Origin: Minisyncoccota bacterium
GTDB taxonomy: Bacteria; Patescibacteriota; Minisyncoccia; Phycocordibacterales; UBA2100
Assembly (NCBI GenBank): GCA_043780835.1
Contig: JAYWCB010000009.1
Coordinates: 1 to 61,081 of the forward strand
Reading direction: 5' to 3'
DNA length: 61,081 bases
Made by a program: the position numbers and the translations under genes. The first letter of the stretch is position 1. The number at the start of each line of letters is the position of its first letter. The notes beneath the pieces were generated by a model, which did no database searches, was not told the DNA's origin, and saw nothing but the letters and a program-made list of their open reading frames with translations. This document shows, in pieces, positions 1,221 through 6,710 of this stretch.

Positions 1221-1363
1221 TTTCGGATCGATTATTGACCCTCAGATTTTAGTTCTCAAACCCAATGCCATGTATCGGCTTGAGAGCTACCTATCCAAGG
1301 GCCCTATTAATAGAGGCACTCTAACAGGAATCCACTCAGCGACCAAGGTGGATGGTCGTCGCG

Positions 1364-3073
1364 TTATTTCACGAAGAGTCGCGCTAACCGGATGTCTTCG
1401 AACGAGCGTTCACCCTTGAGGGCTTGATAAATCGGCGTGAGCGCGGTCAGTTTTTTCTTTTTTATAACGGAAACAATAGAAGCGAGCTCTATTTGCTTCG
1501 AGGACGAAAGCAGGTCGCTCAATGCTTCTATCGGGAGCGCCCCCTGTTGTTTCAATTGTTCGAGGTGTGAGACGATCGTGCCCGGTTTGAGACAGCGTTT
1601 GAGGGCGATGTCTTCGAGGGATAATTTCTGTAAGACAAGTTCCAACGTTGCCGCGTAGGTATCGACGCGATCGCCTTTGGCAACGTGCACGTGTGTGCCG
1701 GCCGGATCACCGCCGAGCGCACGTACGAATGTATCGGAGAATGTCGTGTGTTCGACCTCTTCCATTGCTTCAAATCGTTTTCTCGCTGACGCGGAGTTGA
1801 GTTTGAAATGCGTATCTTGTGCGGTGATATCAGGGTGCACCAACAGTGCTCGTTCGTTGTATCCGAGCAGATACAGTCCGGAAAGTTCGCGAACACGGGA
1901 GAGCGCAACGTATCCTTGGCCGTATTCAAACGCTCCCGAGAGATCCACCGCTGCTGAATCCAAGGTCAGTCCTTGGCTTTTATGTACGGTAATTGCCCAG
2001 GCCAGCCGTAACGGGAGCTGCGCTATACGGGCAAGAATCTTACCGCCGTCCGCAATTGACCACTCAGCAGGCTGTACGAGAATGGATCGGCCGGAGTTTG
2101 TTTTCACCACAGGCCCGGCATCGTTGAATTCAACCACTTCTCCGAGCGTTCCGTTTGCATACACGCCCTCGAGACTATTTTTTGTAAACATGACACGTGC
2201 ACCGATCTTGAGCACGAGTGTTTCCGGAGAAATACACCCACGTTTGAGTGCGTCAATCAGGTGTGCACTTCCCTTCGATACCATCTGGTATGTGTGCAGT
2301 TCATCTTCGATAACAGAAAGTCGATGCGTGTTTTCGCGATCAACATCAGCGTTATGCGAATAGAGTCGAGCGGAATGTTCCGGCACGTCTTCGAGATCGG
2401 TAGCCCGCGACGACAAAAGTTCGTGGTGACTATCATCAATTTTTCCGCGTCGAATTGCCGTCAGGAGCGCAAGAAACGGTGCGTCGTTTTGCCGGTGTTG
2501 TTCAGACAGATAGCAGACGATCGGATTTGCCGCGTTCCATGCGGGTGACGCATACGAAAACGAAACGGTGCGCTTTTTTTGTTCCCGGGGTGATCCGCCC
2601 ATCTCTATCGTGGCGATCTCCGGCTGTTCGTTTTTTGTAACCGGCGGTAATTGGTAGAAGTCACCCACAAAAACCACCTGCATGCCGCCCCAGGGTTTCT
2701 CGGTGCGCTTGAGTGCACGAATCGCGCGCTCAGCCATGGAGAGCGTGCGTGCATCGATCATCGAAATCTCGTCGATGATGAGCACACTCGACGCCGCCGC
2801 ACGCTTCACGAGGCGCTCTCGTGAGGTGATCTCATCGAGATCGTATTCGGTGAGATCGCGCTTCACACCGATGCCCGTCCACGCATGGATTGTCATACCG
2901 CCCACGTGTGTAGCAGCGATCCCGGTGGATGCAGTAATCGCCGGTTCGATGCCGCGCTCACGCAGCCATTTCACATATGTATTGATGGTGTGCGTCTTTC
3001 CGCTGCCGGGCTCACCGGTGAGAAACACGTTCGCGCCGGTCTGTAATGCTTTGAGCGCAGTATCTTGCTTCAT
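1364..3073 (-). CDS. PIF1/RecD-like SF1B helicase with C-terminal helix-turn-helix
   Basis: Walker A GEPGSGKT, IIDEISM, GDFYQLPPV, QHRQ, AWAITVHKSQGLTL, GQGYVALSRV; C-terminal TLEL..SLEDIA..R.L..GTIVSHL. Start placed at ATG 3073 (ORF track extends to 3115). Confidence 0.9.
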   Translation of the reverse strand: MKQDTALKALQTGANVFLTGEPGSGKTHTINTYVKWLRERGIEPAITASTGIAATHVGGMTIHAWTGIGVKRDLTEYDLDEITSRERLVKRAAASSVLIIDEISMIDARTLSMAERAIRALKRTEKPWGGMQVVFVGDFYQLPPVTKNEQPEIATIEMGGSPREQKKRTVSFSYASPAWNAANPIVCYLSEQHRQNDAPFLALLTAIRRGKIDDSHHELLSSRATDLEDVPEHSARLYSHNADVDRENTHRLSVIEDELHTYQMVSKGSAHLIDALKRGCISPETLVLKIGARVMFTKNSLEGVYANGTLGEVVEFNDAGPVVKTNSGRSILVQPAEWSIADGGKILARIAQLPLRLAWAITVHKSQGLTLDSAAVDLSGAFEYGQGYVALSRVRELSGLYLLGYNERALLVHPDITAQDTHFKLNSASARKRFEAMEEVEHTTFSDTFVRALGGDPAGTHVHVAKGDRVDTYAATLELVLQKLSLEDIALKRCLKPGTIVSHLEQLKQQGALPIEALSDLLSSSKQIELASIVSVIKKKKLTALTPIYQALKGERSFEDIRLARLFVK

Positions 3074-3099
3074 GCGCTGCAGTGTAGCAAACACCGTTA

Positions 3100-3849
3100 C
3101 TACCCTTTCGCCCACACGATATTGAAGATGCTGCGAAGCGCATCGGCAGTCGCTTTGTCGTCGATGATTGTCGCCACAATGTTCTTGGAATCGGTTATGC
3201 GCACAAACATCTCCGCGATCTCGATTGAGAGATGATTTTCCTGTGCATATTCACCCACTCGCTGTACTTGAATGTGTCTGCCCTCCGCAGCGAACTGCTT
3301 GAATTCCGGAAAATCGCCAATGTCGGTGTCGGGAGTAACAATCTTAAACGAAATATCCTTCTCAACGCAGGCGGGTGTCCATGAACGGAAAAGTGCACGC
3401 ACGCTCTCCTCGGCATCCTCTGACCCGCCGTAAAAGGAATGGAAGGTCTTCCCTTTCATCGAATCGATCTTATAGTCCTGCGCTTCGGTAAAGCCCTTGA
3501 TGCCACTATAAAAATACACTTTTGGCTTCCCCGCGCCGCCCAAGCTCATAAGGCGCGGGATCATTGCCTGCACTGCGTTCAGCTTTCCCTTTTGTTCCGA
3601 GAGGTATTCCGAGAGGTCTTTGGCGGCGTAGATTGCCTTTTTTGCATGCGGAACCTTGAGCACGAGTCCTTTTTTGCGCAGGTCTTCGAGAATTATATAG
3701 ACGGTCGGCTTCTTTACATCGCAGTGCAGTGCAATTTCGTAGGCGGTAGAGCTCTCGAGGCTCAAAAGCGCAACGTACACCTTCGCCTCTTTTTCGGTAA
3801 ATCCGATCTGTTCGAGGTTTTTTGCAATATCTTCCTGCGGCTTTGCCAT
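3100..3849 (-). CDS. TrmB-family transcriptional regulator (N-terminal wHTH)
   Basis: LEQIGFTEKEAKVYVALL..TAYEIA..VKKPTVYIILEDLRKKGLV; V.FYSG..G at the start of the C-terminal domain. Confidence 0.85.
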   Translation of the reverse strand: MAKPQEDIAKNLEQIGFTEKEAKVYVALLSLESSTAYEIALHCDVKKPTVYIILEDLRKKGLVLKVPHAKKAIYAAKDLSEYLSEQKGKLNAVQAMIPRLMSLGGAGKPKVYFYSGIKGFTEAQDYKIDSMKGKTFHSFYGGSEDAEESVRALFRSWTPACVEKDISFKIVTPDTDIGDFPEFKQFAAEGRHIQVQRVGEYAQENHLSIEIAEMFVRITDSKNIVATIIDDKATADALRSIFNIVWAKG

Positions 3850-4034
3850 AGATACATGATATGCAGAAATTATATATAGTCAACATTTCTGACTACTATC
3901 TATATTGTAGCTGTAAATATACATTTTCCGGACAAAAAAGAACGTGCATTTTGACTAAACTTGCCAAAGCGACAATAATGTTGCCAGGTAAAGAGATGAA
4001 ACCGGCCTACAGGCCAACCACAGGAGACTACCCA

Positions 4035-4706
4035 ATGCGTATCCTTGTCATCGACGACTCTATGACTCATCGCAAGGCTGCCGAGATCCTACTGAAGGAT
4101 CATGATGCAACTATCGTAGCGACCTATGATGAGGCGCAAAAACTGCTCACAAAACAAATCGACTGGGAAAAGCTGAGTTCACAAATGATCGTGGAGGGGC
4201 TTTCAGACGAGTCACCCCGTGATGCAACCTGGAATGCTGCGTATGAGCGTGCAAAAGAGGATGCAACTACGCGTCCGAACTTCGATGCGGTGTTGTGTGA
4301 CCTGCTACTGCCTGCATCAGAACAGGCGCAAGGAAAAAAGGGCCGGGTGCATGTGGGGACAGAAATGCCTCTCGGAACAACCCTTGCATTTCTTGCCCTC
4401 GCTGCAGGTATCAAGCGCGTGGCTGTGGTTACCGATACAAATCACCACAATCATCCGGCTTCGGCCGCGTTTGATCACTTCAAGGGCGCATTCTCTGCCG
4501 GAGATGTACGAGTTTTCTGTACCAACAGGAGTGAGTACCTGGCACCAATGGATGAGCGTACGTTCGAGATTTTCAGTTGGGATTTCTATCGGACCCGCGA
4601 GTTTGAAGAACGATTTCCATACAACGAAGAGACCAAGGAGTGCACGGGAATCCAGACGATCAAAAATTGGCAAAAAGTACTAGATCAGCTCATCGGAGCG
4701 AATTGA
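4035..4706 (+). CDS. Stand-alone receiver (REC)-like protein with insertions
   Basis: MRILVIDD, FDAVLCDLLLP, VAVVT, late Lys (IKNW); SD-like CAGGAG at 4021-4026 before ATG 4035. Confidence 0.65.
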   Translation: MRILVIDDSMTHRKAAEILLKDHDATIVATYDEAQKLLTKQIDWEKLSSQMIVEGLSDESPRDATWNAAYERAKEDATTRPNFDAVLCDLLLPASEQAQGKKGRVHVGTEMPLGTTLAFLALAAGIKRVAVVTDTNHHNHPASAAFDHFKGAFSAGDVRVFCTNRSEYLAPMDERTFEIFSWDFYRTREFEERFPYNEETKECTGIQTIKNWQKVLDQLIGAN

Positions 4707-4827
4707 GATCCACTTGGCAACAGAAACAACACCCCATGCTCTTTCCGGAGAAGTTACGACTTCTCCGTTCGACTGAACTCGCAAACGCGTTGTGGGTTCT
4801 GAGAATAACTAACAAAACATAAAAAAT

Positions 4828-6054
4828 ATGGAATTAGCAAAACAATATAACAATGTTGCTGATGCGTTTACTGAGAGCATCGTGGTCGGTAATGCGGAAA
4901 GCCGACGAATATTTTACTCGTATCTGGACAACATATTGCGTGGAAAGGTAGTACTCGACCTCGCGTGTGGCGACGGAGCCGATATGACTCATTACGAAAG
5001 TCTGGGGGCAACGGTGTACGGTATCGATGCGTCGGAAGAATTGATTGCAAAAGCAAAAGCACGATTACCGAATGCCGATATTCGCGTCGGTGAGTTTGAA
5101 AAGCTTCCCTTTAAGGACGGATCGTTTGATGTGGTCCTTTCAAAGTATGCGATACAAACCGCTTTACATATCGCGCCGTGCCTCGATGAGATACATCGCG
5201 TCCTTAAGCCCGGCGGCGTGCTTGTGTACCTGGTCACGCATCCGTTTCGACAGTATTTCGAGAAACGCGAGCGTAGAGCCGATTATTTTGAGCAAAAGAT
5301 TGTGAAGTCAACATTCTTTGACGGCTTGGTAACCGTGCAGGAGCCGACACATACAATAAATGAATACTTGAGTCCGAAGTTCTTAACTGAGTTCGATGTT
5401 ATTGGTTTTGGAGAATATTGGGATGTTGAAGCAGAACAAGTGGATGGGAAGAAGTATCCCGGATACTTTATTCTGAAGGCAGTTAAACGGACCTCGTCTC
5501 CGGCAAAGCATAATATTAAACTTGCGATATTTGGTTCCGCGAGTGATGAAATGTCGATAGAGCAGCGCGAGATTGCGGCACGACTCGGTTGGTATTTAGC
5601 AGAACTCGGCGTTACGGTCGTATCCGGTGCATGTCGTGGTATGCCGGGAGTGGTAATCGAATCAGCACACCGCCATGGTGCAAAAACTGTCGCGTACTCA
5701 CCGGACAGCGACGAACAGAATCATCACGCACGCATGGATAATCTTGAATTGAGCCACTTTACCGAACATAACTTTGTGCCAGGATTCACGGCGAGGAGCC
5801 TGGCAATGCTCAATAGCGTCGATGGGGTGCTGGTACTCAATGGTCGTATGGGCACGCTCTCTGAATACGCAATTGCGCTCGAAGAAGGCCTTCCTGCAGC
5901 AGTAGTAACCTCGACCGGCGGGATAGCCAAACACCTTGAGGTGATTACGAAGCAATGCGAGAAAACGTTTGTTCGTGAGCCAATTTTCGAACCTGATTAC
6001 AAAGTGGCAGTGGACACGCTCATTGCGGGGATTCTTTCGTCGCGCGACAAGTAA
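4828..6054 (+). CDS. Class I SAM methyltransferase fused to a SLOG (LOG/TIGR00725-like) domain
   Basis: VLDLACGDG, GIDASEELI, LPFKDGSFDVV in the N-half; IFGSA, VVSGACRGMP, DGVLVLNGRMGTLSEY in the C-half. Confidence 0.8.
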   Translation: MELAKQYNNVADAFTESIVVGNAESRRIFYSYLDNILRGKVVLDLACGDGADMTHYESLGATVYGIDASEELIAKAKARLPNADIRVGEFEKLPFKDGSFDVVLSKYAIQTALHIAPCLDEIHRVLKPGGVLVYLVTHPFRQYFEKRERRADYFEQKIVKSTFFDGLVTVQEPTHTINEYLSPKFLTEFDVIGFGEYWDVEAEQVDGKKYPGYFILKAVKRTSSPAKHNIKLAIFGSASDEMSIEQREIAARLGWYLAELGVTVVSGACRGMPGVVIESAHRHGAKTVAYSPDSDEQNHHARMDNLELSHFTEHNFVPGFTARSLAMLNSVDGVLVLNGRMGTLSEYAIALEEGLPAAVVTSTGGIAKHLEVITKQCEKTFVREPIFEPDYKVAVDTLIAGILSSRDK

Positions 6055-6079
6055 AAAGCCCCGACGATGCCGGGGCTTT
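6055..6079. terminator. Bidirectional intrinsic terminator
   Basis: AAAGCCCCG-loop-CGGGGCTTT between convergent genes. Confidence 0.75.
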
Positions 6080-6092
6080 CACTTTTGATTAT

Positions 6093-6710
6093 TTATTCCA
6101 CACCGGTTGCTCCGGCGATGTCTTCGATGATTTTTTGCACATCGGCATCTGAGGAATTTTCCGGCGCATCCATTTTTCCAATAGCGCGCCGTGCGCCGCC
6201 TCGATAGTTAATGAGATAACGGCGAGGATCTTCATCGAGGTCGAGAAAGTGATCTGCAGCCGCTTTCAGCATACTCGAGGTTGAGCGGCCAAACGACGCG
6301 ACTTCAACTTGGCATCCCCCATGAACCTGGAGGTACTTAACCAACGGCACGAAGTCTCCGTCACCGGTAAAGAGGATCACCGTGTCGAGTTTCGGTGACA
6401 TAGTGATCGCGTCAACCGCCATACCAACGTCCCAGTCTGCTTTTTTTGCACCGCCAAAGAAAACCTGGAGGTCTTTTGTAGTCGTTTCGATGCCTATTTT
6501 GCCGAGGGCTTCAAAAAAGCCTTTCTCCTCGCCGCTTTCAGTCGTAACCACATAGGCGCGAGCACGAATGAGGCGACGGCCTGCAACAGAGTCCTTGAGG
6601 ACATTGCCGAAGTTTACGCGTGAATGATAAATGTTCTTTGCGCTGTGATAGAGATTCTGTGTATCGATGAAAACGCCAACGCGCTGCTCAGGATGTTTAA
6701 TGATTGCCAT
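6093..6710 (-). CDS. NYN (LabA/DUF88, PIN-like) domain protein
   Basis: GVFIDTQNL, KADWDVGMAVDA, LFTGDGDFVPLV; start at MAIIKHP. Confidence 0.9.
   Translation of the reverse strand: MAIIKHPEQRVGVFIDTQNLYHSAKNIYHSRVNFGNVLKDSVAGRRLIRARAYVVTTESGEEKGFFEALGKIGIETTTKDLQVFFGGAKKADWDVGMAVDAITMSPKLDTVILFTGDGDFVPLVKYLQVHGGCQVEVASFGRSTSSMLKAAADHFLDLDEDPRRYLINYRGGARRAIGKMDAPENSSDADVQKIIEDIAGATGVE

Follow-up and report, generated by a model that had tools for sequence, protein, structure and literature searches.

The gene considered here lies on the forward strand at positions 4828–6054 of contig JAYWCB010000009.1, a stretch of 61,081 nucleotides from a Minisyncoccota bacterium, to which, at its full length, the term "window" refers below. 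Its product, P0001, joins a class I S-adenosylmethionine (SAM)-dependent methyltransferase to a SLOG domain resembling the LOG enzymes. The open reading frame (ORF) begins with ATG, contains zero internal stops, and encodes 408 residues, and the N-terminus of the product, MELAKQYNN, agrees with that of the homologues. In the Pfam search, Methyltransf_11 (PF08241) was assigned to residues 43–133 with an E-value of 4e-24 (85.5 bits, cut-off 21.2), and LDcluster4, or SLOG cluster 4 (PF18306), was assigned to residues 230–367 with an E-value of 9e-18 (64.7 bits, cut-off 26.3), which passes the threshold for membership in this cluster. The original prediction, made from the letters of the sequence, had described a single 408-residue ORF with a class I methyltransferase followed by a SLOG/LOG-like domain; both the open frame and the Pfam assignments show this description to be correct, and the motifs quoted in it are found as FGSAS (residues 235–239), SGACRGMPG (266–274), and NGRMGTLSE (338–346). 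As shown in Table 1, a linker separates the two halves, and a candidate terminator hairpin stands right after the stop codon, before a convergent NYN gene. AlphaFold2, run on the full-length sequence with a 73-row alignment, gave two Rossmann-type domains, with a mean predicted local distance difference test (pLDDT) score of 94.6 and a predicted template-modeling (pTM) score of 0.70; both domains are confidently modeled, and their relative orientation is less so.

Table 1. Features of the locus in the coordinates of the window.
Feature	Positions	Strand	Basis and remarks
Genome-specific block of ~5 kb	1223..6185		PIF1-like helicase with HTH_40, TrmB, REC-like gene, methyltransferase-SLOG gene; DNA comparison
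TrmB-family winged-helix regulator	3100..3849	-	Pfam TrmB, E-value 1e-17; divergent from the REC-like and methyltransferase-SLOG genes
Orphan REC-like gene	4035..4706	+	Immediately upstream of the methyltransferase-SLOG gene; no Pfam match
Methyltransferase half	4828..5490	+	Residues 1–221; class I SAM-dependent, small-molecule type; Pfam, Foldseek
Linker of 8 residues, TSSPAKHN	5491..5514	+	Comparison of linkers in six fused proteins
SLOG cluster-4 (LOG-like) half	5515..6054	+	Residues 230–408 and stop codon; PF18306
Terminator-like hairpin, AAAGCCCCG...CGGGGCTTT, then a T-rich tail	6055..6079	+	Consensus scan, pattern match only

In most relatives, the two halves are encoded by separate adjacent genes, and a continuous frame of this kind could be produced by a chimera or a sequencing frameshift that joined two neighboring genes. 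Against such an artefact, five other fused proteins (P0002–P0006) were retrieved from ~5.8 billion protein clusters; they come from other assemblies and differing samples and are 55–79% identical to P0001 over the full length. The fused proteins total only six among the matches, and their linkers vary, as seen in KRTSSPAKHNIKLAIF, KRHAPLRLAVL, KRPAITLAVF, and others. From run X1, a Logan contig of 52.5 kb with a depth of 14.8 covers positions 4700–6100 with zero differences; X1 is probably the source sample, and hence the independence of this contig lies in the assembly and not in the sample. In addition, the frame is open without any correction. The artefact explanation, whose probability is negligible, was rejected because of the six fused homologues and the identical independently assembled contig, and the fusion is real. 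The chimera at the junction, for which the original prediction had suggested a check of read support, was thus not borne out, and its remark that the fusion was unfamiliar also holds, as the fusion is rare and uncharacterized rather than common with a known function.

The arrangement from which the fused gene derives was examined by searching with a SLOG-subfamily profile (alignment A1), which gave 28 loci in contigs representing one genome per species. These belong mostly to Saccharibacteria, and the others are found in Moranii-, Pacei-, Falkow-, Nomura-, and Shapirobacteria, in four DPANN archaea, and in two contigs labelled Bacteroidia. As determined by tblastn and ORF calling, an orthologous methyltransferase is encoded directly upstream on the same strand at 23 of the 28 loci, with 30–56% identity over the full 221 residues, and where the two genes are split, they are 0–10 nt apart or overlap. 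In the split operons, the position of the P0001 linker is taken up by the stop codon, a spacer of a few nucleotides, and the SLOG start codon. In DPANN archaea (loci L048 and L051) and in the proteins P0163 and P0208, the SLOG subfamily (43–46% identity) is instead N-terminal, and the class I methyltransferase joined to it is another one, with 26% identity confined to the SAM core; the reverse-order fusion in DPANN archaea is an independent one. Altogether, at least 25 of the 28 loci link the SLOG subfamily with a SAM methyltransferase. When the two halves were concatenated for a maximum-likelihood tree, the split pair of L031 fell together with the six fused proteins (support 99/99), and a single origin of the six is recovered in 48% of the bootstrap trees. 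P0001 represents the joined version of a conserved operon in which a methyltransferase gene precedes a SLOG gene.

Each half has two paralogous clades, A and B. In three Saccharibacteria loci (L037, 2157–5546; L039, 2140–5543; L044, 1463–5549), methyltransferase and SLOG pairs of clades A and B stand in tandem, and each tandem pair has its own divergent regulator of ~275 residues. At some loci, two methyltransferases are placed ahead of one SLOG gene. Two loci labelled Flavobacteriaceae/Bacteroidia (L054, 3438–5537; L049) carry a module of regulator, methyltransferase, and SLOG of the type found in the Candidate Phyla Radiation (CPR), and the regulator of L054 is 45% identical to a Saccharibacteria regulator; the module under this label reflects either horizontal transfer or mis-binning.

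In the methyltransferase half, motif I (LDLACGDG, residues 43–50) and GIDAS (65–69), including the acidic residue after β2, are intact, and the family motifs are THPFRQ (137–142), EPTHT (172–176), and YPGYF (210–214). The Pfam score, motif I with the acidic residue of β2, and the seven-stranded Rossmann-like fold together identify this half as a class I SAM methyltransferase. The Foldseek search matched it with a probability of 1.00 to many class I methyltransferases, with template-modeling (TM) scores of 0.6–0.75 by target length. The top matches are small-molecule methyltransferases (3l8d, 3g5l, 2p8j, and 8ys9), and the matches include structural-genomics proteins, a phosphatidylethanolamine N-methyltransferase, DhpI, and ToxA. 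The fold agrees with small-molecule rather than nucleic-acid methyltransferases. The Foldseek matches, being mostly structural-genomics proteins and diverse small-molecule methyltransferases, gave no specific clue to the substrate. Stand-alone CPR methyltransferases of ~224 residues are 50–62% identical to this half. Some sources label its homologues as UbiE/MenG quinone methyltransferases; the half misses the curated NCBIfam cut-offs for UbiE/MenG (TIGR01934, 58.5 against 158; NF001244, 55.4 against 216).

For the SLOG half, an AlphaFold2 model of the domain only was obtained with a pLDDT of 96 and a pTM of 0.91. When this model was compared with the Protein Data Bank (PDB) by Foldseek, the best match was TM1055 (1rcu), with TM scores of 0.77/0.84; type-I LOGs with bound AMP (5zbk and 5zbl) match with a TM score of ~0.76, LOG-family proteins of several organisms are also among the matches, and DprA matches less well. 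TM1055, a TIGR00725-type protein, is the best profile match as well (E-value 5e-10), and both proteins fall into PF18306; it differs in that TM1055 is itself uncharacterized and P0001 lies under the curated cut-off of TIGR00725 (49.8 against 106.9).

The catalytic residues proposed for the LOG of C. glutamicum are Arg99 and Glu122, and the phosphate is held there by the backbone of the motif, Thr119, and Ser19 (PMC4979012). In HMMER alignments to LOG proteins, including 5zbj of P. aeruginosa, Arg99 and Glu122 correspond to R323 (in GFTARS) and E346 (in NGRMGTLSE) of P0001, and the phosphate-site residues Ser19 and Thr119 correspond to S237 (in FGSAS) and T343 (in NGRMGTLSE). All four residues are invariant in 26 of 26 sequences of the SLOG subfamily. 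An additional invariant residue, Arg340, stands in place of the second Gly of PGG, and the LOG residues in contact with adenine and the prenyl group, Met96, His97, Lys100, and Glu121, are replaced by Phe, Thr, Ser, and Ser, respectively. A degenerate SLOG pocket, which the original prediction had considered, was thus not found, as the catalytic Arg and Glu are invariant. With the pocket intact and the base- and prenyl-contacting residues replaced, the specificity predicted from the alignments must differ from that of the cytokinin LOGs. Compared with the type-I LOGs of C. glutamicum and P. aeruginosa (5zbj/5zbk), the SLOG half shares the Rossmannoid SLOG fold and the equivalents of the catalytic and phosphate-binding residues, and it differs in the motif, the extra Arg340, the altered base pocket, the LOG scores below the cut-offs, and the pairing or fusion of its subfamily with a methyltransferase. 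In its predicted working, the half is most like LOG, yet the protein closest to it is TM1055 of SLOG cluster 4.

Further clues to the substrate come from the other fusions of the two families. For the methyltransferase family, 1.84 billion cluster representatives were searched exhaustively with HMMER; among the members found, P0156 and P0189 align over the full length with the family and carry the motifs HPxxQ, EPTHT, and YPGFF. In P0156, the methyltransferase is fused to a type-I, purine-type phosphoribosyltransferase, for which the closest NCBIfam models are those of the archaeal hypoxanthine/guanine and adenine phosphoribosyltransferases (HGPRT/APRT; E-value 5e-33, below the cut-offs). In P0189, it is fused to a thymidylate-synthase-like domain, which is a weak match (E-value 1e-5). 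What phosphoribosyltransferases, thymidylate synthase, and LOG have in common is that they work where a base meets its (deoxy)nucleoside monophosphate ((d)NMP). On the side of the SLOG domain, a metagenome protein, P0253, is a tandem double SLOG of cluster 4, and a 611-residue Shapirobacteria protein (L056, 3654–5489) has an N-terminal domain of ~430 residues fused to the SLOG subfamily. The N-terminal domain of the latter matches cytosylglucuronate synthase weakly, with 31 bits, far below the cut-off. Cytosylglucuronate synthase, an enzyme of GT-B type, couples a free base to a sugar in the biosynthesis of blasticidin and mildiomycin; the match is a hint only as to the substrate.

Bacimethrin biosynthesis finishes with a SAM methyltransferase, BcmC. 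In the biosynthesis of mildiomycin and bacimethrin, an NMP is modified and the base is then freed by a dedicated N-glycosidase, as described for the pairs MilA/MilB and BcmA/BcmB (PMC4081090). The likeness of P0001 to these pairs lies in this pathway logic of NMP modification and N-glycosidic release of the base, and the thymidylate-synthase-like fusion of P0189 is a further likeness to pathways of the MilA/BcmA type. The differences are that the superfamily of MilB and BcmB is that of the nucleoside 2-deoxyribosyltransferases rather than SLOG, and that no biosynthetic cluster surrounds the module here.

With moderate confidence, we propose that P0001 is a bifunctional cytoplasmic enzyme that acts as an NMP N-glycosidase and a base methyltransferase. 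The SLOG half would work in the manner of LOG as a nucleoside-5'-monophosphate N-glycosidase, releasing a free base and ribose-5-phosphate, and the methyltransferase half would add a methyl group to this base, which is most likely a purine, with the methylation taking place either prior to cleavage, on the nucleotide, or afterwards, on the free base. The net output would be a free methylated nucleobase and ribose-5-phosphate, and the role of the reaction may be the disposal or salvage of scavenged nucleotides or the making of a methylated-base metabolite, with the unit usually placed under a divergent winged-helix regulator. The methylation and release of a base are favored because both domains are recognized and modeled with confidence, the SLOG subfamily is linked with methyltransferase genes at most loci, the catalytic residues are retained, the methyltransferase fold is of the small-molecule type, the other fusion partners are linked to NMPs, and MilA/MilB/BcmB provide a precedent. 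Of the two roles offered in the original prediction, the making or recycling of a methylated nucleotide or base is the one best supported by the context, and the defence role is taken up below.

Several results weigh against this proposal. The strict LOG motif PGGxGTxxE is altered to NGRMGTLSE, in which G, G, T, and the final E are retained while Pro is replaced by Asn and the second Gly by Arg, and the cut-offs of the LOG models are missed (PF03641, 17.1 against 27; TIGR00730, 33.3 against 96.35). Of 401 evenly sampled Patescibacteria genomes, five (~1%) carry an orthologue of the methyltransferase, with SLOG adjacent or fused in three of them; close stand-alone methyltransferases with no SLOG neighbor exist, including those of two of the five carrier genomes, and therefore the methyltransferase has no strict need of a SLOG partner. 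A 543-residue metagenome protein, P0004, consists of methyltransferase, SLOG, and SET (SET E-value 1e-11), and its SET domain hints at a protein substrate. Finally, the SLOG half resembles two molybdenum-cofactor (Moco) carrier or binding proteins, 6y01 and 2iz6 (TM ~0.73 by query and 0.84 by target; profile E-value 3e-4), about as closely in fold as it does the LOGs, and the role of these two proteins is binding and not catalysis.

Three of these results, namely the altered motif, the stand-alone orthologues, and the protein-lysine-methyltransferase domain SET added in P0004, are also expected if the SLOG half is a non-catalytic sensor, as in ThsA/YpsA, that switches a methyltransferase acting on a macromolecule (tRNA, rRNA, or protein) or an unrelated small molecule. 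Both roles, that of an enzyme and that of a sensor binding nucleotides or ligands, have been ascribed to SLOG domains (PMC6459960). Such a sensor is nevertheless unlikely, as the catalytic and phosphate-site residues of LOG are invariant in 26 diverged sequences and a pure binder needs none of them, the other fusion partners of the methyltransferase family are nucleotide-metabolizing enzymes and not sensors, and the methyltransferase fold is small-molecule-like. The structural match to the Moco proteins may alternatively be read as a sign that the SLOG half holds a phosphorylated cofactor, such as a pterin, which the methyltransferase modifies. We regard a carrier of this kind as very improbable, because the LOG-type catalytic Arg and Glu are retained, the other fusions of the methyltransferase family lead to purine and pyrimidine nucleotide chemistry, and no cofactor-biosynthesis genes recur nearby.

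At almost every locus, a divergent gene of 250–285 residues is found directly upstream of the module. This gene encodes a genuine Pfam TrmB-family regulator in seven cases, and TrmB-type regulators flank the module in L005, L048, L050–L052, and L057. In 18 cases, its product falls in a family (alignment A4) that no Pfam model matches. Assignment of the A4 family to TrmB was tried and was not established, as hhalign gave a probability of 37% over 42 columns, and its profile matches in the PDB, to the winged helices of Fur, PerR, and TFIIF, have E-values of 0.13–0.6. On this weak evidence, the N-terminus of the A4 family looks like a winged helix. The C-terminal two-thirds contain invariant Trp, His, and Arg positions (for example, in L037, 3398–4222, minus strand) and may form an undescribed ligand-binding domain. 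In the Pfam tally of 101 further flanking proteins, no family was found in more than three loci, so that the regulator is the sole recurrent neighbor besides the methyltransferase.

In the window, the gene order is TrmB on the minus strand followed by the REC-like gene and the methyltransferase-SLOG gene on the plus strand. The REC-like protein has 111 CPR homologues, and none of the 31 related loci (L005–L007 and L030–L057) contains one. The original prediction had envisaged testing the fused gene together with the REC gene; a partnership between the two is contradicted by this absence and by the nearest relatives of the REC-like gene, which adjoin TrmB where no methyltransferase-SLOG gene is present. 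The TrmB and REC-like proteins of the window are 65% and 61% identical, respectively, to a TrmB/REC-like pair in L058/L059, where the methyltransferase-SLOG gene is missing. In L058 (3053–4675), the divergent TrmB/REC-like pair is followed by two 91-residue genes in place of the methyltransferase-SLOG gene. The TrmB regulator here is thus most likely, from these comparisons, the conserved partner of the REC-like gene, and the latter, being absent from all the other methyltransferase-SLOG loci, is by the same comparisons a local neighbor and not a partner of the module. A consensus scan placed sigma-70-like sites only at 3856–3979, because of which the REC-like and methyltransferase-SLOG genes are perhaps co-transcribed. 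A likeness of the N-terminus of P0194 to the REC-like protein was a visual impression only and had no BLASTP support.

The source genome (G000) comprises 1.245 Mb in 17 contigs and is 95.8% complete, and the names of the homologues together with the related loci point to Saccharibacteria/Patescibacteria; the genomes of the same genus measure ~0.7–0.8 Mb against 1.25 Mb here, which is a large gap for a CPR genus. P0001 is the sole orthologue of its methyltransferase family in this genome, and the next best protein is 33% identical over the SAM core. A second SLOG cluster-4 protein, P0121, of 228 residues, is encoded on contig 2 as a stand-alone gene (G000:C2:40099–40623; L008, 1390–2076, minus strand); it is 25% identical to the fused one and scores 110 bits with PF18306. 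P0121 is a more typical cluster-4 protein than P0001, and it is P0121, not the fused protein, that is the version of cluster 4 widely conserved across the order.

The fused gene is missing from both genomes of the same genus (G056 and G159). In these genomes, the PNPase gene (which ends at ~1222 in the window) and the NYN gene (which starts at ~6186) are only ~250–370 bp apart, so that the intervening ~5 kb of the window is a block specific to this genome (Table 1). Neither direct nor inverted repeats were found at the ends of the block. Within the order, the methyltransferase orthologue is present, besides this genome, only in G166 and G148. The distribution of the module is rare and patchy, and its place in this genome is a variable region.

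A rare, patchy, and transfer-prone distribution, a ~5-kb block missing in the congeners, and tandem paralogous copies are the features that would suit a conflict or defence module, which would deplete or mark nucleotides, or process a nucleotide signal, against a phage or a competing cell. SLOG domains also occur in nucleotide-centered conflict systems (Burroughs 2015, as cited in PMC6459960). Searches against PADLOC-DB 2.0, however, gave only a generic match of the methyltransferase core to mad2 (residues 35–142), and the matches to PsyrA and ShosA are sub-threshold, with E-values above 1e-4. No effector, nuclease, ATPase, or sensor recurs among the flanking proteins of the related loci. In the phage collections, no relatives of the module are present in IMG/VR or in the GenBank phages (INPHARED), where the matches are to the generic methyltransferase core only. 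A defence role, which the original prediction had offered as the alternative, is thus not upheld by any defence-specific PADLOC match, effector partner, or phage copy, and we consider it improbable, more so than the sensor discussed above. The nucleotide N-glycosidase with base methylation remains the reading that we prefer for P0001.

CPR and DPANN organisms are ultra-small symbionts that depend on scavenged nucleotides, being unable to make their own, and little is known of how these nucleotides are processed. In the literature searched, outside whose coverage the 2015 SLOG survey (Burroughs et al.) falls, a pairing or fusion of methyltransferase and SLOG is not described, and a literature search for TIGR00725 gave nothing. 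In a wider and more speculative extension, which we consider rather doubtful, CPR and DPANN would possess an undescribed class of modules composed of an NMP glycosidase and a methyltransferase, which would convert scavenged nucleotides to free methylated nucleobases, for example methyl-purines, to be exported as signals or antimetabolites against hosts or competitors. The divergent winged-helix regulator would then sense the substrate or the product, and the paralogous pairs of clades A and B and the arrangements with two methyltransferases ahead of one SLOG gene would yield different methylated bases.

The present analysis defines a compact module, made up of one 408-residue protein or of two small genes and a regulator, which is directly testable, and the SLOG subfamily in question is nearly always tied to a SAM methyltransferase, including through two independent fusions. 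Even if the predicted chemistry fails, the pairing would still offer a clean system for asking what role is played by SLOG domains other than LOG. If the proposal is true, it would give the first function for a branch of the SLOG cluster-4/TIGR00725-like proteins and a function for a CPR methyltransferase family now mislabelled as UbiE, and methylated nucleobases could be metabolites or signals in the interactions between episymbionts and their hosts.

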